In this document: in pieces, positions 5,022-21,533 of the stretch | Layout: the number at the start of each line of letters is the position of its first letter | Numbering within the stretch: the first letter of the stretch is position 1 | Program-made: the position numbers and the translations under genes | The notes under the pieces: generated by a model | Databases searched by the model: none | Told to the model about the DNA's origin: nothing | The model's input: the letters and a program-made list of their open reading frames with translations, nothing else | Source of the DNA: a virus | Lineage: Duplodnaviria; Heunggongvirae; Uroviricota; Caudoviricetes | Virus record (IMG/VR): IMGVR_UViG_2778261223_000025 | Location: 1 to 23,900 of that record | Direction: 5' to 3' (one strand) | DNA: 23,900 nucleotides

Positions 5022-7187
5022 ATGGCCGACGAAAACAGACTCAATTCCATTCTGTGTAAGTTTGACGCAGACTGGATGGCGAGCGATGAAGCCAGAACCG
5101 AGGCGACAAATGACCTGTATTTTAGCCGAGTGTCGCAATGGGATGACTGGCTATCAAACTACACCACCCTGCAATATCGCGGACAATTCGATGTTGTCCG
5201 CCCGGTTGTCAGGAAGTTGGTCGCAGAGATGCGCCGGAACCCTATCGACGTTCTCTTCCGACCAAAAGACGGTGCTAATCCTGATGCTGCCGATGTGCTG
5301 ATGGGGATGTATCGTACTGATATGCGCCATAACACGGCAAAAATTGCCGTTAATGTTGGCGTTCGTGAGCAGATAGAGTCAGGCGTTGGTGCATGGCGTC
5401 TGGTCACGCAGTACGAAGACAACGACCCAACAAGCAACAATCAGGTAATCCGACGCCTGCCAATCCATGAAGCCTGCTCACACGTCATATGGGACGCCAA
5501 CAGCAAGCAGATGGATAAGAGCGACGCTAAGCACTGCACGGTGATTAACGCCTTGTCACGCAATGGCTGGAAAGAGTTCGCAGAGGATTACGGTATTGAT
5601 CCTGACACCTTGCCATCTTTCCAGAATCCGAACGATACATGGCTGTTTCCGTGGGTATCGAATGATGTCGTCTACGTCGCTGAGTATTACGAGGTCGAAG
5701 AGAAGAAGGAGAAGGTCTTCATCTACCGCGACCCGCTGACAGGTGAGCCGGTCAGCTATTACCAGCAGGATATCAAAGACGTCATCGACGACCTGGCTAA
5801 TCGTGGATTCATTAAGGTAGCAGAGCGCAAGGTGAAGCGTCGGCGTGTGTATAAGTCGATCATCACCTGCACGCAGATACTGAAAGACCGAGAAAAGATA
5901 GCCGGAGAGCATATCCCAATCGTTCCAGTGTATGGAGAATGGTCATTCGCTGGTGACAAGGAGTGCTACGAAGGAGTGGTAAGGCTGACGAAAGACGGTC
6001 AACGCCTTCGTAACATGATCATGTCATTCAACGCCGATATTGTTGCTCGTTCACCGAAGAAGAAACCGACCTTCTTCCCTGAGCAAATCGAAGGCTACGA
6101 ATACATGTACGGTGGAAATGATGACTATCCGTACTATCTGCAGAACAGGACCGATGAAAACGGTAACGACCTGCCGATTGGTCCAATCTCCTACATGGAA
6201 AACCCTGAAGTGCCGCAAGCCAACGCTTATATGCTTGAGGCTGCCACCAACGCAGTGAAAGAGGTGGCTAGTCTTGGTGTGGATGCGCAGGCAGCAAACT
6301 CTCAGGTCGCTTTCGATACCGTCAATCAACTGAACATGCGGGCAGACCTTGAGACATACGTGTTTCAGGATAACCTGGCTACCGCAATGCGACGTGATGG
6401 CGAGATTTATGCCTCAATGGTCAACGATATTTATGACGTTCCTCGTCATGTAACGCTGACACTTGAAGATGGAAGCGAGAAAGACGTTCAACTCTATGCG
6501 CAAGTTGTCGATTACCAGTCCGGCAATGTGGTCACACTCAACGACATTCGTGGTCGCTATGAGTGCTATACAGACGTTGGACCATCCTTCCAGAGTATGA
6601 AGGAACAGAACCGCGCAGAGATTCAGGAGTTACTCACCAAGGTTCCGCAAGGTACTCCAGAGTTCCAGATGCTGATGCTGCAATACTTCACGCTCCTTGA
6701 CGGTAAAGGCGTCGAGATGATGCGAGAGTACGCGAACAAGCAACTGGTGATGATGGGGCTGAAGAAACCAGAAACACCTGAAGAGATGGAGATGGTACAA
6801 CAGGCACAACAACAGCCGCAGCAGCCATCAGCAGAGCAAATTCAGGCGCAGGGTATCCTTCTGCAAGGTCAGGCTGAATTGCTCAAGGCAGAGAACCAAC
6901 AGGCACAGATTCAGGTTGAAGCCGCCAAGGTTGAAGCCCAAAACCAACTCAACGCCGCGAAGATTGCAGAAATCTTCAACAATATGGACCTCGACAAGCA
7001 GGCAGAACTGCGTGAGTACCTCAAGCTAGTAGGTCAATTCCAGCAACAGCGCAGCAAAGATGCTCGTGCTAACGCTGAGCTGCTTCTTAAAGATGCAGAC
7101 CAGAATCATTCACAACGCATGGATTTCGCGAATCTTATGCGTCAAGTTCAAATCCCCTCCGGCGGAGTAGCCGAGACACCTCAATAA
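5022..7187 (+). CDS. 1: Portal protein, P22 gp1-type
   Basis: 721 aa; recognisable P22 portal sequence including the Q-rich C-terminal helical region; ATG directly follows the terminase stop. Confidence 0.95.
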
Positions 7188-13594: not shown

Positions 13595-14866
13595 ATGGCT
13601 AGTTGGCAACAAGGAATCAACTCAGGCGGCTTTCTTGCTGGTATCGGTGGGCAAAACTCAAATGCGCCAAAGGCAAGTGATGTAAGTGAGGCGTTGGCCT
13701 ATATTCGCCAGAACAACGAAATGGAGCGCTCAGGTCGCAATAACATCGGCCTTCAGGCGTTGCAGGGGCCTGGTAGTGTCGCTCAAACATATCAAGCCGC
13801 AAAGCAACAGGAAGCGGGTGCTGCATTCCAAAAAGAATATGCGGCAGCCATCCAGTCAGGTGATCGGCAGCAGGTGCGAGATCTGATGACCAAATATCCT
13901 GGTCAATTAGAGAAGATTCAGTCTGGTATGAAGTGGGCAGACGAAGACCAGCGCAATTCTATCGGCACCTTAGCGGCTGGCGCACGCCTTGCGTCATCGT
14001 CTCCAGAAGCAATGCAATCATGGCTGCAAAACAACGCCAAGGAACTGGCGCGCGTCGGTGTTGACCCTAACAGCGTTGCTCAGATGTATCAGCAAAACCC
14101 TTCAGGATTTGGTGAGTTTGTTGATCACCTTGGAATGGCTGCTCTTGGTCCGATTGATTACTTCAATGTTCAGGACAAGATGGTTGGTCGCCAGCAGGAT
14201 CAACAAAGAATTAACGAAACAATCCGTAATAATGACATGACAAATGCCAGAGGGTGGGCAAGCAACAATATTGCGCAACAAAATGTCAATCTTCGTCGGA
14301 TGGAATTAGAGGACAAGAAATACGACAGACTCATCGCAAATGAAACTAATGCCTTAAAACTTGCTGAATTGCAGGACAAGAGATTGCAGAATCAGCAAGC
14401 TATGGAGCAGGCAAAGCGAGATAAGGCCGATGCGTACAACTCTGGAATGGATAATCTCTCCAGAACGATAGAGACGGCTACAAAAGTTCTTAATAGCCCA
14501 GGATTCACGGGATATTTCGGAACAAACCTAAACCCACTATCGAGTAGATTCATTCCAGGAACAGAGGCTGCTGATACAGAAACTCTGGTTGACACACTGA
14601 AATCTCAGGGATTCTTATCTGGCATTCAGCAGATGAAAGGGATGGGGGCTTTAAGTAATGCCGAGGGGCAAAAGGTAATGGATGCTATTGGTAGTTTGTC
14701 CCCAAATCAGTCTGAAAAATCAGCCAGAGCAGCTATCAAAACAATCATAAAAACCACTGAGATGGCTCAGAAACGTATGCAACAGAAATACGGGAAGGAC
14801 ATACAACCGTCTCAACAGCAGCTTTCTGATGATGACCTGATTAATAAATATCTCGGAGGGCAGTAA
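13595..14866 (+). CDS. 20: Ejection protein, gp20-type
   Basis: 423 aa at the position of P22 gene 20; aaggtggg Shine-Dalgarno-like motif; diverged from P22 (size differs). Confidence 0.65.
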
Positions 14867-16982: not shown

Positions 16983-17366
16983 TTATCTAATGTTGCTGCT
17001 ACTGTTGCATGTGACGGTATTCCCAAATCCTGAATTGCAGTTTGTATATGTGTCAACGCGTGTTGGGTAAGGTTGAGTTATAACAGGCTGGCGCGCTTTT
17101 TGCTCGATCGCTTGCATTGTGTTTACAGCCTGATAATTCAATAAAGCCTGCTGGAATGCTTGGCTTTGTGCTATTTGTTGGGCTTGTTCTTGGCTTTGTA
17201 ATTGAACATAAAGATTCTGAAGCTCAAGTCTTGCCTGTGCGTCACTTATCTTGCCTTGATCGACACCTTGCCCGAGCATCTTCGCAGCAAGGACATACAG
17301 CTTAGGTGTTGGTGCTGATGCCATGCGTGAGTCGTTCTTCACGCTGGCATCAAGGCAATTAGCCAT
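16983..17366 (-). CDS. Hypothetical Q-rich coiled-coil protein, probably a lipoprotein whose signal peptide is encoded upstream of the first ATG
   Basis: 127-aa ORF from the first ATG; the same frame is open upstream to 17507 and encodes (I)KKSLLIIPLLLAG-C, a lipoprotein-type signal peptide, with no in-frame ATG/GTG/TTG; ATA codons at 17478-17480 and 17466-17468. AT-rich. Confidence 0.55.
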   Translation of the reverse strand: MANCLDASVKNDSRMASAPTPKLYVLAAKMLGQGVDQGKISDAQARLELQNLYVQLQSQEQAQQIAQSQAFQQALLNYQAVNTMQAIEQKARQPVITQPYPTRVDTYTNCNSGFGNTVTCNSSSNIR

Positions 17367-17493
17367 ATCACTAAGCTTTGGATAGCGTTGCTCGCAACTT
17401 GCTTGGTAGTCACTTACTTTTGCGCATCCAGCCAGCAGAAGCGGGATAATTAATAGTGATTTTTTTATAAAGTTATTTATAAAATCCTTTCTA

Positions 17494-17808
17494 TTATTTA
17501 TCAGAAGTTAGATTGTAATAATTGGTATAAGCTGAAATTGACTTCTGGCATGCTTCAAGAAATTCCTGTGGATTCATTCCTAGTCTTGCTTGCTCTGTGG
17601 TCAGAAAACGCTGTAAGAACTCATCTCCGCCAGGCATTTTTGTTGATTCTTGAAATGTTGCCATTTGTTTGATTGTGCCGCACATGCCAGCAAATTTCGA
17701 AGTTATCATGAGTTCTTGCAGGCCTTTAAGATCGCCATTATCTGATTTTGGTTTGGCGAAAACTATTGTAGAGAAGAACAATATTAACAAAATAGCGATA
17801 CGTTTCAT
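17494..17808 (-). CDS. Hypothetical small secreted protein with Sec signal peptide
   Basis: 104 aa; N-terminus MKRIAILLILFFSTIVFA followed by KPK; start ATG overlaps the mnt stop (ATGA), implying translational coupling; AT-rich; no family recognised. Confidence 0.6.
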   Translation of the reverse strand: MKRIAILLILFFSTIVFAKPKSDNGDLKGLQELMITSKFAGMCGTIKQMATFQESTKMPGGDEFLQRFLTTEQARLGMNPQEFLEACQKSISAYTNYYNLTSDK

Positions 17809-18056
17809 TTTTCACTGTTGCCATGCATACATTTTAACTTCTCAACCTCATGCTCAAGCTCTATCAACCGCGATGCTATAGTTGCAAGATCTAGTGCTTG
17901 AATATGTTTATTTTTTTCAGTCCATGCCTCAAGTGCTGCTACCATCTCAGCATTTAATGAACGAGAATTAGCCTCAGCCAGTTCAATAAGACGTTCCTTT
18001 ATCTCTACAGGAAGCCTCAGATTCACTTGAGGGTTTTTGTACTTACGATCAGACAT
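17805..18056 (-). CDS. mnt: Mnt-like ribbon-helix-helix repressor (immI region)
   Basis: 83 aa from the ATG at 18056 (track ORF starts at an upstream GTG); N-terminal RHH-like motif and C-terminal coiled coil; divergent from arc-ant as in P22; same length as P22 Mnt. Confidence 0.72.
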   Translation of the reverse strand: MSDRKYKNPQVNLRLPVEIKERLIELAEANSRSLNAEMVAALEAWTEKNKHIQALDLATIASRLIELEHEVEKLKCMHGNSEK

Positions 18057-18084
18057 CGGCACATCCTGAATAATTTTTTACCAC

Positions 18085-18113
18085 AGGATATGTAGGTATC
18101 TATTGACTATCAA
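18085..18113 (-). promoter_or_regulatory. Candidate Pmnt promoter
   Basis: Minus-strand TTGATA, 17-nt spacer, TATCCT, about 30 nt upstream of the mnt ATG; overlaps the divergent Pant -35. Confidence 0.3.
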
Positions 18114-18131
18114 TGCGTACCTAAATACTAT
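18103..18131 (+). promoter_or_regulatory. Candidate Pant promoter driving arc-ant
   Basis: TTGACT, 17-nt spacer, TACTAT on the plus strand about 30 nt upstream of arc; a 6-bp inverted repeat tgtatg/cataca (18131-18149) and a direct repeat atgcgtacc (18113-18121, 18134-18142) are operator candidates. Confidence 0.4.
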
Positions 18132-18160
18132 GTATGCGTACCACATACAAAGGAGCAAAA

Positions 18161-18307
18161 ATGAAAGTTAAGACATTAAGGATGCCAGAATGGCTGGAAA
18201 AGGCTTTGGAGCAGTCCGCGAAAAAGGATGATCGGTCGTTCAGTAATGAGGTATTGAGGAGACTAAAGGAGTCAGTAGCTAAGGATGGAATTGTTTGTCC
18301 AGAATGA
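18161..18307 (+). CDS. arc: Arc-like ribbon-helix-helix repressor (48 aa; below the ORF track's length cutoff)
   Basis: ATG at 18161 with AGGAG 6 nt upstream; MKVKTLRMPEWLEKALEQSAKKDDRSFSNEVLRRLKESVAKDGIVCPE; size and position match P22 arc, upstream of ant. Confidence 0.68.
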   Translation: MKVKTLRMPEWLEKALEQSAKKDDRSFSNEVLRRLKESVAKDGIVCPE

Positions 18308-18310
18308 GTA

Positions 18311-18341
18311 AAGCCCAAGCTATTGCGAGTAGCTCGGGCTT
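18311..18341. promoter_or_regulatory. Hairpin in the arc-ant intercistronic region (possible sar-like antisense RNA element)
   Basis: 10-bp arms aagcccaagc/gctcgggctt (9 of 10 paired), 11-nt loop, 30 nt upstream of the ant start; no clear U-tract on either strand. Confidence 0.3.
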
Positions 18342-18373
18342 AAATCGCCAGTAAATTTTGAGGAAAAACTGAC

Positions 18374-19303
18374 ATGAAAAGTATAGCAACAGCAGTATCT
18401 ACTATCAACGTGCCATTCCACGGCGCAGAGCTTTATGTCGTCAATCACAACGGTGAGCCGTACACCCCAATGAAACCTATCGTTGAAGGTATGGGTATGG
18501 ATTGGGCTTCACAGTTTACGAAAATAAAGCAACGGTTTAAAACCTCCATTGTGAAAATCACAATGCAGCTTCCTGGTGATGAACAGTGCCGTGAGATTAT
18601 TTGTTTGGCACTTCGCAAACTTGCTGGCTGGCTGCAAACCATCAGTCCAAACAAAGTCCGCCCTGAAATCCGCGACAAGGTAATCCAGTATCAGGAAGAG
18701 TGTGACGATGTGCTCTACGAGTACTGGACTAAAGGCCATGTAGTTAACCCACGCAAAGCTAAAAAGGCGTTGCCGGGTAAAATCACCACTGAACAGCAGG
18801 AAGCCATTAAACAACTCGTCATGAGTCGCGGTCAGTCTCTGCCAAAAGAAAAACAGGCGAAGGCAATGATTACCATGTGGTCGTCGCTGAAATCTCATTT
18901 TGGGTGTTCATACAAAGAAATCAGCGATGAGCAGTTTACCGAAGCTCTGTCACTTGCAGCTCGCGTTCCGCTTGAAGGCGAGTTAATCGGCAAACAAGAG
19001 AAGAAAGCAAACGAGCTTTCTGCAAAAGAAGCAAACAGCCTTGTATGGTTATGGGATTATGCCAACCGCTCACAGGCATTATTCCGCGAACTGTATCCGG
19101 CGCTAAAACAAATTCAATCGAACTATTCAGGCAGATGTCATGACTGTGGTTATGAGTTCTCCCGTATTATCGATATGGCGAGAGACGTTTTAATCAATCA
19201 CTCACGAGATGTTGATATCAATGAGCCAGACGGACCAACGAATCTTTCCGCATGGATGAGACTTAAGAATAAAAAATTACCTCCTTCAGTACATAACTAC
19301 TGA
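18374..19303 (+). CDS. ant: Antirepressor Ant
   Basis: 309 aa (P22 Ant about 300); N-terminus has the typical antirepressor look; follows arc and precedes the tailspike as in P22 immI. Confidence 0.8.
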   Translation: MKSIATAVSTINVPFHGAELYVVNHNGEPYTPMKPIVEGMGMDWASQFTKIKQRFKTSIVKITMQLPGDEQCREIICLALRKLAGWLQTISPNKVRPEIRDKVIQYQEECDDVLYEYWTKGHVVNPRKAKKALPGKITTEQQEAIKQLVMSRGQSLPKEKQAKAMITMWSSLKSHFGCSYKEISDEQFTEALSLAARVPLEGELIGKQEKKANELSAKEANSLVWLWDYANRSQALFRELYPALKQIQSNYSGRCHDCGYEFSRIIDMARDVLINHSRDVDINEPDGPTNLSAWMRLKNKKLPPSVHNY

Positions 19304-19321
19304 CAGATAACCAACGCAACG

Positions 19322-19346
19322 ACCCAGCTTCGGCTGGGTTTTTTTA
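19322..19346 (+). terminator. Rho-independent terminator between ant and the tailspike gene
   Basis: Perfect stem acccagc/gctgggt with a cUUCGg tetraloop, then TTTTTTT. Confidence 0.8.
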
Positions 19347-19403
19347 TACCCAAAATTCACCGTAGCCACGCTGCGGCGATTCCTTGCATCTGGAGCAAAT
19401 TAA

Positions 19404-21533
19404 ATGACAGACATTACAGCCAATGTGATTGTATCTATGCCTTCGCAACTCTTCACTATGGCGCGTTCTTTTAAAGCGGTTGCCAATGGCAAAATTTATA
19501 TCGGTAAAATTGACACTGACCCGGTAAATCCTGAAAACCAGATTCAGGTTTATGTGGAGAACGAAGACGGTTCTCACGTTCCTGTTTCGCAACCAATCAT
19601 CATTAACGCTGCTGGATATCCGGTATATAACGGACAGATTGCCAAGTTCGTAACTGAGCAAGGCCATTCCATGGCTGTATATGATGCGTATGGTGCGAAG
19701 CAGTTCTATTTTCCTAATGTGCTGAAGTATGACCCTGACCAATTTCAGTTCACGCTCTCGTCAGACACTGGCGCAAATCTTGTCGGCATCAAGAGAACTG
19801 GACTGCCAAATAATAACTCTACTACTGTTGGTGCTTACTATCAGACAACACCTATCAACGCGGTAACAGATTACGGAATGAAAGGGGATTTCGACCCGTC
19901 AACTGGATTTGTTAACGGAACGAATAACCGTTCTGCACTTCAACAATTGATGGATGATCTGGTAAATATCGGTGGAAACAAAACTGTAACCATTCCTCCG
20001 GGTAACTATTACTTCAACTTTGACGGTAGCACTAATCCTGGTGGTGTTGGGGTTATGTGGGGAAGGGTCGGTGCAGGGTTAAAGAATGTCACATTCCTGT
20101 GCTATGGCGCCACATTTTACTCTGGGAGCATTGGCAGACTTAACGGCATATTCAGCGCTAATTATGGTGTAAGGATAAAAGGCTTGAGAGTGATAGGGTT
20201 CGGCGGCGGAACGCTCGCTCCTTCACGAGAAAGGGATGCTATCTTTGCTCTTGCCTACAACTGCTGTGGGGTAACATTTGATGAGTGTTACTTTGCTAAC
20301 AGCATGGGGGACTGCGTTTATCTTGGTGGCAGTCTTGATGACGGCTCTATAACTGGATTATTTTGCAGGGATATCGCTTTTAATGGCTGTACTTTAAAAG
20401 AAAGATACGGGGATGGTATTAGATCTTACTACAGCGGATCTAGGTCAAGGATGGCTATTGCTGTTATCGACTGCGTTGGTCTCAGGATTGATAACTGCAA
20501 AATAGTAGGCGGAATAGACTTCGAACCAAACGCAACAAACCAGCGCCTGCAGAATATGATGGTAGGTAATACCAGGTTCCATGCAGGAAATGTCCTTGCA
20601 TACACTGGAACAAACCCATTTTACGAGGAGCAAATCAATAGCGGAACTCAGGTTATACGTGGAGACATCCGATTCCAGACGCGAGCGGGTGGGGTCATCA
20701 CTCAGAATATTCATATATCTAACGTATCATTCGACTACGGATGCATCAGGCAGACATCTCTTGGTATAGCTGACGTTATTTATGAAAACATAAGAATGCG
20801 CAGGGGTATATTGGTGGTTGGTTCTGACTCAGGCACAAACTTCAACCCATCTGCAAACTTCAATGATGTTTATGTTGATCTGGCTCTTAACGGTTCAGAT
20901 GATGATATCTTTGAGTTGAATGGGTCAGGCACAACACCTCCTACATTGCCAGCAGTAGTCATGTTGATACAGGGAAATCTTACATACGCAAGATTTAATG
21001 GGATAAGTGGAGGGAATACCATCGGTGCATTTAGTTACCTGTTTTATGCAGATCCAACACACACAGCTGGTGATGCGGGGAGGAGCATTTACGCAAACTG
21101 CAGCATACTTGGCGGTAACCTTTACAACTACACTATCCCGGATAGCAGTCAGGAACTTGGAAACACATCTATGCCAGCCTCCGGAGTTGCCTTTACAAAA
21201 TACCGTAGGATTAATACTGACCTAATCATGCAGTCGGTTGGTGCTCTAAGCATATCCGCAAGCGGTTCAATAGACTGGAACGCATTCAGAACAAGCAAAT
21301 TGGCAGTAACTGCTACCACTACAGGCCTGCAAATATCAGGGATTGTTAATGGCCCTATGGTTGGTGCTGAGGTTCAGATAAGGAATAGTGGATCAAACCC
21401 CATAATTCTGGCTCACAGTACATCTTTCTATCTTAAAGGAACAACTAGTGCCACCCTTGACGATACGAGAAAGGTGGTGACGTTCCAGTACATCTCTTCA
21501 GGAGTATGGACGGAGATATACCGGAACTTTTAA
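19404..21533 (+). CDS. 9: Tailspike protein with P22-type N-terminal head-binding domain and a divergent receptor-binding domain
   Basis: 709 aa; the first roughly 110 residues match the conserved P22/HK620 tailspike N-terminus from memory; the rest is G/N/S/T-rich, consistent with a beta-helix, and differs from the P22 and HK620 domains I can recall. Confidence 0.9.

Follow-up and report, generated by a model that had tools for sequence, protein, structure and literature searches.

The DNA analyzed here, hereafter the window, comprises all 23,900 nucleotides (nt) at positions 1 to 23,900 of the IMG/VR virus record IMGVR_UViG_2778261223_000025 (Caudoviricetes), and its virion-gene backbone resembles those of the coliphages Louie, APC_JM3.2, and IME10. 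The sequence was read from 17500 to 18800, where an interval flagged in a preliminary description turned out to be the gap separating two divergent small genes. On one side lies an mnt-like gene (minus strand), and on the other an arc-like gene and the antirepressor gene ant (18161-19303, plus strand), with a putative sar-like antisense RNA between them. According to the open reading frame (ORF) map, Pfam, and the P22 annotation, this is the gene order of the immunity I (immI) region of phage P22, in which a divergent repressor gene faces an arc-ant operon between the gene-16 and tailspike homologs. The 65-bp stretch at 18085-18149 is most likely a two-way promoter and putative repressor-site region that governs the antirepressor gene of a P22-like prophage. 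All features are listed in Table 1.

Both small proteins fall into the Arc/Mnt ribbon-helix-helix (RHH) family, with an N-terminal beta-strand followed by two helices and Pfam Arc (PF03869) scores above the cut-off of 20.4 bits (Mnt-like, 40.3 bits, E=2.9e-10; Arc-like, 25.1 bits, E=1.6e-5). Over the RHH domain the Mnt-like protein shows 42% identity to P22 Mnt and 47% to P22 Arc, and the Arc-like protein is 31% identical to P22 Arc. The structural matches of the pair in the Protein Data Bank are 1mnt and 1arq/1par, 1mnt being the best solved-structure match of the Mnt-like protein. Residues 54-76 of the latter have a hydrophobic 3-4 spacing as read from the sequence, and a separate C-terminal helix (57-78) appears in a single-sequence AlphaFold 2 (AF2) model, a weak prediction in which one of five models was confident. 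This C-terminus has no sequence similarity to that of P22 Mnt, and C-termini vary widely within the family. Neither a GTG at 18062 upstream of the mnt-like ATG nor an in-frame ATG at 18134 upstream of the arc-like start is kept as a start in the family. Thus, gene order and protein families agree with the earlier proposal of an immI-type control region between divergent RHH repressor genes.

Table 1. Features of the immI-type locus in window coordinates (+, plus strand; -, minus strand;., no strand assigned)
Feature	Position	Strand	Remarks
Conserved regulatory core, 65 nt	18085..18149	.	From per-column conservation; both leaders and the coding flanks diverge
Rightward (arc-like/ant) -35, TTGACT	18103..18108	+	TTGAC invariant in the family
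Rightward -10, TACTAT	18126..18131	+	17-nt spacer; predicted start ~18138
Leftward (mnt-like) -35, TTGATA	18113..18108	-	TTGATA or TTGCTA family-wide, TTG always kept
Leftward -10, TATCCT	18090..18085	-	17-nt spacer; predicted start ~18078
Box L, GTAGGTATC	18092..18100	+	Degenerate copy; in the spacer of the leftward promoter
Box M, ATGCGTACC	18113..18121	+	In the rightward spacer, abutting the leftward -35; CGTAC invariant; family consensus ATRCRTACC
Box R, ATGCGTACC	18134..18142	+	Over the predicted rightward start; 21 bp from box M
19-bp palindrome, TGTATGCG-TAC-CACATACA	18131..18149	.	Contains box R; extends the 6-nt arms first described
mnt-like RHH repressor gene	17805..18056	-	83 amino acids (aa); ATG 18056..18054; stop included; preceded by AGGA
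Predicted 5' leader of mnt-like mRNA	18057..18078	-	Shine-Dalgarno (SD) AGGA 18067..18064; start near 18078 deduced from the -10 position
arc-like RHH gene	18161..18307	+	48 aa; SD GGAG 18152-18155; stop included
sar-like antisense RNA	18307..18373	-	Putative; antisense to the arc-ant junction and to the ribosome-binding site of ant
Promoter-like site for sar-like RNA	18380..18408	-	TTGATA, 17 nt, TATACT, TG before the -10; 10/12; inside the start of ant
Antirepressor gene ant	18374..19303	+	309 aa; Pfam P22_AR_N 7e-45, P22_AR_C 1.2e-26; 55% identity to P22 Ant

Conservation of the intergenic core

We collected about 170 related loci, which support both promoters described below. A query with the Mnt-like protein returned 79 IMG/VR loci (51-100% identity), and the Arc-like protein returned 80. 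A profile scan of one genome per species gave 18 loci, which come from Yersinia, Arsenophonus, Phlomobacter, Xenorhabdus, Photorhabdus, Providencia, Moellerella, Chimaeribacter, Pantoea, and two distant metagenome-assembled genomes (MAGs). In E. coli, the module was found in 147 of the 5,426 complete genomes, among them K1/extraintestinal pathogenic E. coli (ExPEC) and O104:H4 strains. Among 50,697 phage records, it was found only in CUS-3 and SEN22.

Across these loci the core, a block conserved in Enterobacterales prophages, is 80-98% identical to the window where the adjacent third codon positions of mnt-like genes (at identical amino acids) are only 20-50% identical; core identities under 80% belong to loci whose core is truncated or has a 1-nt indel. 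Since the core is conserved while neighboring synonymous sites are saturated, the comparison indicates purifying selection on non-coding DNA. Beyond the promoter hexamers, the conserved positions are GT 18092-93, GGTA 18095-98, CGTAC 18116-20, TATGTATGC-TAC 18129-41, and TAC 18146-48. Among them, CGTAC in the rightward spacer and GGTA in the leftward spacer are invariant bases for which a promoter has no need. All 80 loci with type-A/B Arc-like genes have the same core, and a type-C query gave just three close loci.

Divergent promoters

A promoter on each strand (TTGACT, 17 nt, TACTAT on the plus strand; TTGATA, 17 nt, TATCCT on the minus strand), with overlapping -35 regions, had been described previously. 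Both were recovered at those positions, and their -35 hexamers have base 18108 in common. Each scores 9/12, with sigma-70 hexamers and a spacer within 16-18 bp on either strand. From the window sequence alone, such matches are not above chance (4 in 2.1 kb versus 4.3 expected in shuffles), and the support for both promoters is therefore comparative; it was drawn from 64 unique family segments. For the rightward promoter, TACTAT is present in 43 segments and TAATAT in 13, with a 17-bp spacer in nearly all of them, and this retention, together with that of TTGAC, backs the assignment. At the leftward -10, 12 hexamers were observed (TATCCT, TACTAT, TATTCT, TAATCT, TACCAT, TAATAT, TACTCT, TATATT, TAACAT, TAATTT, TATTAT, and TAGTAT), all of which have T1, A2, and T6 and lie 17 bp from the -35 (18 bp in two). 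The only invariant bases are thus 18090, 18089, and 18085, the positions most important for a -10 element, and family-wide retention of TTG and TAnnnT backs this promoter as well. Judged by these comparisons, the leftward promoter appears well supported and the rightward one is also backed by family conservation; the starts near 18138 and 18078 are predictions. The two promoters are arranged back to back and mirror each other about base 18108; their -35 hexamers abut, and the predicted starts are ~60 bp apart.

We also considered a leftward promoter superimposed on the rightward one (-10 GATAGT at 18111..18106, -35 TACATA at 18134..18129). Such a layout would parallel that of P22, and a start near 18099 would put into the leader a conserved-looking hairpin, in which the -10/L-box region pairs with the SD. 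It matches only 7/12, and the TAnnnT signature belongs to the -10 at 18090..18085 instead. In 13 of the 64 segments, the essential A at position 2 of its -10 is replaced (GCTAGT, once GCTCGT), while the same change leaves the TTG of a -35 intact. Because of this loss, the candidate was rejected, and we regard it as highly improbable.

The complementarity underlying that hairpin joins the -10/L-box region to the SD region of the mnt-like gene (18060-18092; CATATCCTG/CAGGATGTG on the minus strand), and it is retained in other lineages via different sequences. With the supported start near 18078, only one of its arms would be transcribed. The pairing could be due to chance (the boxes being anti-SD-like), could form an extra operator at the DNA level, or could be a structure in plus-strand late read-through RNA.

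Repeated boxes and the palindrome

With the family aligned on the -35 anchor, three boxes with the consensus RTRCRTACC emerge, starting at 18092, 18113, and 18134, and the 21/21-bp spacing is kept in nearly all members. Boxes M and R are the two copies of the direct repeat ATGCGTACC noted in the preliminary description, and they are indeed 21 bp apart, start to start. The degenerate L position is occupied by ATGCGTACC in Yersinia, GTGCGTACC in Photorhabdus, and GTACATACC or CTGCATACC in other lineages. A 9-nt direct repeat arises in 1.9% of shuffles, and the 21-nt periodicity (16/21 matches) in none of 2000; in contrast, 18% of shuffles contain three perfect 6-nt inverted repeats within 98 nt, which makes these unremarkable. 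The direct repeat is the only one of the previously listed elements that stands out from the window sequence alone. Nine matches to the box pattern were found in the 23.9-kb window, four of which lie inside 51 bp at the control region, and a stricter version of the box occurs in the whole CUS-3 genome only in the control region, plus one singleton. Together with a co-occurring invariant reading strand (see below), the boxes have the form of a phased, conserved RHH operator array, and we treat them as putative operators. Given their spacing, all three probably face the same side of the helix.

Box R is embedded in a 19-bp palindrome with the family form TGTATGYG-TAC-CRCATACA, which is unique in the window and perfect (8+8, ending in CCGCATACA) in four loci (L013, L044, L046, and L066). 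Its outer TGTAT/ATACA arms are retained even in a Cellvibrionaceae MAG (L099). Accordingly, the inverted repeat previously described here (TGTATG 18131-18136/CATACA 18144-18149, 7 nt between the arms) is present, but it is only the outer part of this palindrome. A terminator-like hairpin on the minus strand was set aside as a reading of the palindrome, which has only three G-C pairs, has no context in favor of such a role, and sits on the rightward start site. The second inverted repeat, TAGGTA 18093-18098/TACCTA 18118-18123, is likewise present and centered on 18108, but its halves are better read as the degenerate L box and the M box, because in Yersinia, Photorhabdus, and others the L position simply repeats the box in direct orientation. 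Direct and inverted readings are ambiguous here since the GTAC core is its own reverse complement.

These symmetries also permit a model with two operators, a positional copy of P22 Omnt and Oarc, in which the palindrome would be the operator of the Mnt-like protein and an inverted repeat centered on the -35 hexamers (TAGGTA...TACCTA or ATTGA-CTA-TCAAT, center 18108) would be an Arc-like operator shutting both promoters. The positions of the sites parallel P22, 18089-18127 forms a 39-bp imperfect palindrome (14/18 pairs), GGTA 18095-98 and TACC 18118-21 are both conserved, and an Arc-like site over both -35 hexamers would account for the repression of both promoters. However, the left element is a direct rather than inverted copy of the box in several lineages, and the ATTGA/TCAAT symmetry is an automatic by-product of two -35 hexamers abutting each other. 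Moreover, boxes M and R are identical at 9/9 bases, suggesting one protein, and three types of Arc-like reading heads are found on essentially the same DNA. We consider this model unlikely.

Another explanation for the conservation of these 65 nt would be a recombination "boundary sequence" for the swapping of lambdoid modules rather than repressor sites. In the CUS-3 annotation, the interval between mnt and ant carries the label "bsq2; boundary sequence", and mosaic joints do lie just outside the core: arc-like types switch directly after CATACA, mnt-like C-termini vary, and two loci (L024 and L045) break at ~18083. Yet substitutions within the core are not uniform but promoter-specific (TAnnnT, TTG) and box-specific, the boxes stay with the mnt-like gene in a different context, and recombination linkers do not need 21-bp phasing. 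This explanation has, in our opinion, very little chance of being correct.

Candidate repressor of the boxes

The N-terminal strand of the Mnt-like protein, Y[KR][NH]PQVNLRLP, is invariant in all 167 loci that bear the core, even where it is joined to an unrelated C-terminal half. Its Gln, Asn, and Arg align with the base-contacting positions of Arc, not with the His-Asn-Arg of Mnt. The Arc-like proteins carry at least three heads, KTLRMP, SSVRFP, and VSVRMP, all on essentially the same DNA. In the Cellvibrionaceae MAG, which has the same Mnt-like head, the M and R boxes have changed in concert (ATACATAGC and ATACATATC). In four Providencia/Moellerella loci (L086-L089), the mnt-like gene has no adjacent arc or ant. 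The leftward geometry is kept there without gaps (TTGATA in L086, L088, and L089 or CTGATA in L087, 17 nt, TAGAAT), and AGGTATC/GCGTACC boxes recur every 10-11 bp, including the half-way positions, which correspond in the window to the rightward -35 and -10 (GACTATC and TACTATG). An 11-bp deletion, another reading of the Providencia loci, was ruled out by the ungapped alignment and by the full boxes at half-way positions. Relative to the rightward promoter, box R is located where Omnt is found in P22.

Based on these sequence comparisons, the boxes are most likely candidate operators of the Mnt-like protein, because they co-occur with its invariant strand and persist with three Arc-like heads as well as without adjacent arc or ant. 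The previous assumption that the separate repeats are one Arc and one Mnt operator was therefore not borne out: the boxes look like one operator type that travels with the Mnt-like protein. No separate Arc-like operator was identified, and no DNA difference tracked head type among the loci with different Arc-like heads; the Arc-like protein may use the same boxes or the symmetry centered on the -35 hexamers as its site. By eye, N/H or K/R arm variants of the Mnt-like protein showed no association with G/A variants of the boxes.

If both repressors read the same RTRCRTACC boxes, they could differ in oligomeric state and affinity (a putative C-terminal oligomerization helix in the Mnt-like protein versus a bare 48-aa RHH protein), and the switch would work by competition or mixed occupancy. 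A second class of conserved motif is not evident in the core, all Arc-like heads keep (T/S)-x-R-(M/F)-P, and both proteins of the Cellvibrionaceae MAG have a Gln-x-Asn-x-Arg strand. Nevertheless, the reading strands differ (Q-N-R versus V-T-R or P-S-R), and such differences reportedly set operator specificity in P22 (Knight and Sauer). Box sharing by the two proteins thus seems rather improbable to us.

Upstream of the mnt-like gene of the four Providencia/Moellerella loci (60-180 nt before its ATG), we observed that this gene faces a UmuD-like (S24 peptidase) gene. The UmuD-like gene has a canonical LexA box (TACTGTATATAAATACAGT in L087), and a second near-LexA box (CTGTATACATATACAA) abuts the mnt-like boxes; this arrangement hints at an SOS input to the mnt-like promoter. 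Several other loci contain different control elements. In L024, L045, L091, and L092, the window-type mnt-like gene comes second after another RHH repressor, and RTRCRTACC boxes are absent from its vicinity. Another immI-type control region, whose repressor has the head SPLGIRIP, is found ~330-390 nt upstream of the mnt-like ATG in L024 and L045, and it contains the box CTACACCGTG repeated exactly 21 bp apart as well as a CTACACTGTGTAG palindrome. The design of a box repeated at 21 bp may be general to this class of switches. In an Armatimonadia MAG (L098), two copies of GGACCACGGTGGTYC lie ~23 bp apart upstream of the mnt-like gene, between divergent RHH genes, and their core CCACGGTGG equals the P22 Omnt core (GGTCCACGGTGGACC) despite a very distant host phylum.

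Proposed mechanism

From the observed gene order, protein families, conservation of promoters and boxes, and co-occurrence of the boxes with the Mnt-like protein, the following course of events can be proposed, in which transcription starts, binding partners, occupancy order, and any activation are presumed. The rightward promoter would transcribe the arc-like gene and ant, and the leftward promoter would transcribe the mnt-like gene and a translationally coupled ORF of 104 aa (orf104). The Mnt-like repressor would bind the boxes through its invariant Gln-Asn-Arg beta-strand. Of the boxes, R with its palindrome overlies the rightward -10 and start, M is in the rightward spacer beside the leftward -35, and L is in the leftward spacer. 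Boxes R and M would be occupied first, keeping the arc-like gene and ant silent in the lysogen and the mnt-like promoter free or favored. The weak L box would be occupied only at high concentration and would auto-limit mnt-like expression. During infection, ant expression would then be held down, as it is in P22, by the sar-like RNA and by the Arc-like protein, the first product of the rightward transcript.

As a whole, including promoters, boxes, and mechanism, we consider it fairly probable that this is an immunity-I ("ant moron") module of the CUS-3/SEN22 type in a P22-like prophage, with a bidirectional promoter-operator region. More tentatively, and with less confidence than this general assignment, a single Mnt-like repressor may run a three-operator switch similar to lambda OR on back-to-back promoters, with graded occupancy that first silences ant and then auto-limits the repressor, and the cassette may move as a unit among Enterobacterales prophages. 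The Arc-like partner would be an interchangeable accessory, since three types of reading heads sit on the same 65-bp cassette.

Several points weigh against the general assignment and the proposed mechanism. The spacing of 21 bp is twice the usual 10-11 bp between adjacent RHH dimers, and the half-way positions in the window match the box only weakly. The argument from co-occurrence is weakened by the fact that most loci encode both proteins, and an Arc-like gene could conceivably lie elsewhere in the Providencia prophages. Furthermore, the Arc-like head in the Cellvibrionaceae MAG (QFNVR) has a Gln-Asn-Arg pattern like that of the Mnt-like head. Finally, the order of occupancy and any activation of the leftward promoter are proposed purely by analogy with P22 and lambda.

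Comparison with known systems

The locus resembles P22 immI in several respects: mnt and arc-ant are in the same order between the gene-16 and tailspike homologs, the repressors are RHH proteins of the Arc/Mnt type, Ant is 55% identical, a putative antisense RNA whose promoter-like site falls inside ant faces the ribosome-binding site of ant, and a symmetric site is located directly downstream of the rightward -10, where Omnt lies. On the other hand, the P22 promoters are superimposed, at 14793-14821 (plus strand) and 14826..14798 (minus strand), with starts ~37 bp apart, whereas in the window (18103-18131, plus strand; 18113..18085, minus strand) only the -35 hexamers overlap. P22 has two unrelated operators, and the candidate operators of the window are three copies of one box at 21-bp spacing. 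The Mnt-like protein of the window carries the Gln-Asn-Arg reading residues of Arc in place of the His-Asn-Arg of P22 Mnt. The candidate operators had been expected to differ from those of P22, and the comparison confirmed this: neither P22 Oarc (ATGATAGAAGCACTCTACTAT) nor Omnt (AGGTCCACGGTGGACCT) has a match within three mismatches anywhere in the window, and the control regions of the window and P22 showed no meaningful similarity when aligned.

CUS-3 (CP000711) and SEN22 (NC_028696) both carry the module of the window; the control region of CUS-3 is nearly identical, and in SEN22 the whole mnt-like/arc-like stretch is 84% identical. CUS-3 differs in that its arc-like allele is another one and is unannotated, one more ORF precedes ant, and a second mnt, of the P22 type, is found downstream. 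The unannotated Arc-family ORF encodes 46 aa (Pfam Arc, 3e-8) and is located at 2859-2999 of locus L001 (CP000711 ~6759-6899), within the "bsq2 boundary sequence". According to the epsilon34 genome paper (PMC2629481), arc is apparently missing from CUS-3 and HS-1, which may regulate ant in another way. By its sequence, the CUS-3 module does in fact contain an Arc-family gene, and that view of CUS-3 needs to be corrected accordingly. No promoters or operators are annotated in the CUS-3 or SEN22 records, and we found no description of these sites in a search for literature on the control region or its motifs.

The P22-type mnt of CUS-3 (L001 2224-2472/L180 7286-7534) is stacked downstream of the resident mnt-like gene, and a search of CUS-3 for the P22 operators found none, Omnt being absent from its whole genome. 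One possible role of such orphan mnt alleles is to guard a lysogen from the antirepressors that phages with another immI type bring in on superinfection. In addition, Mnt and its relatives are labeled "partition protein ATPase" in PHROG 795/2685 and in the RefSeq records NC_002371 (P22) and NC_028696 (SEN22); on 83-aa RHH repressors, this label is a propagating annotation error.

In its working, though not in its parts, the proposed switch would resemble lambda OR, where three similar sites, one of them weaker, are spaced about two helical turns apart over two divergent promoters. In lambda, this layout (PR/PRM) allows graded repression of the lytic-side promoter together with autoregulation of the repressor promoter. 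The differences are a helix-turn-helix fold in lambda versus an RHH fold here and the abutting -35 hexamers of the window. Short repeated boxes on one DNA face are also known from the MetJ met-boxes, the omega heptads, and CopG, and in the Providencia relatives the boxes recur every 10-11 bp. The box sequence is different, however, and the strong boxes of the window are 21 bp apart, with weak matches half-way.

Putative antisense RNA and neighboring genes

The putative sar-like antisense RNA matches Rfam RF00262 over the full length of the model with 29.3 bits (E=0.0036), below the gathering score of 43, and folds into two hairpins (-25.7 kcal/mol, z=-5.7). It may be a diverged member that is under-scored by the Rfam model. 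The promoter-like site upstream of it is at the position of P22 Psar, inside the start of ant. Apart from this sub-threshold match, Rfam gave nothing over 17000-19600.

On the other side of the control region, the start codon of orf104 (17494-17808, minus strand) overlaps the stop codon of the mnt-like gene in the sequence ATGA, and orf104 is therefore probably co-expressed with the repressor from the prophage. Its product has a signal-peptide-like N-terminus (MKRIAILLILFFSTIVFA) and matches PHROG 19844 (7e-64), to which no function is assigned; no Pfam match was found for it. At the position of P22 orf59a and sieA, this ORF is a candidate lysogenic-conversion or exclusion gene.

Significance

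How the antirepressor is controlled determines if a prophage remains silent and if one phage can induce or resist another. The module analyzed here is widespread, being found in E. coli as well as in prophages of Yersinia, Photorhabdus, Xenorhabdus, Arsenophonus, Pantoea, and others. It appears to be a conserved variant of the P22 immI switch with another promoter layout and other candidate binding sites. As a second natural switch of the immI type, it would be useful for comparing the designs of RHH switches and as a compact orthogonal regulatory part.

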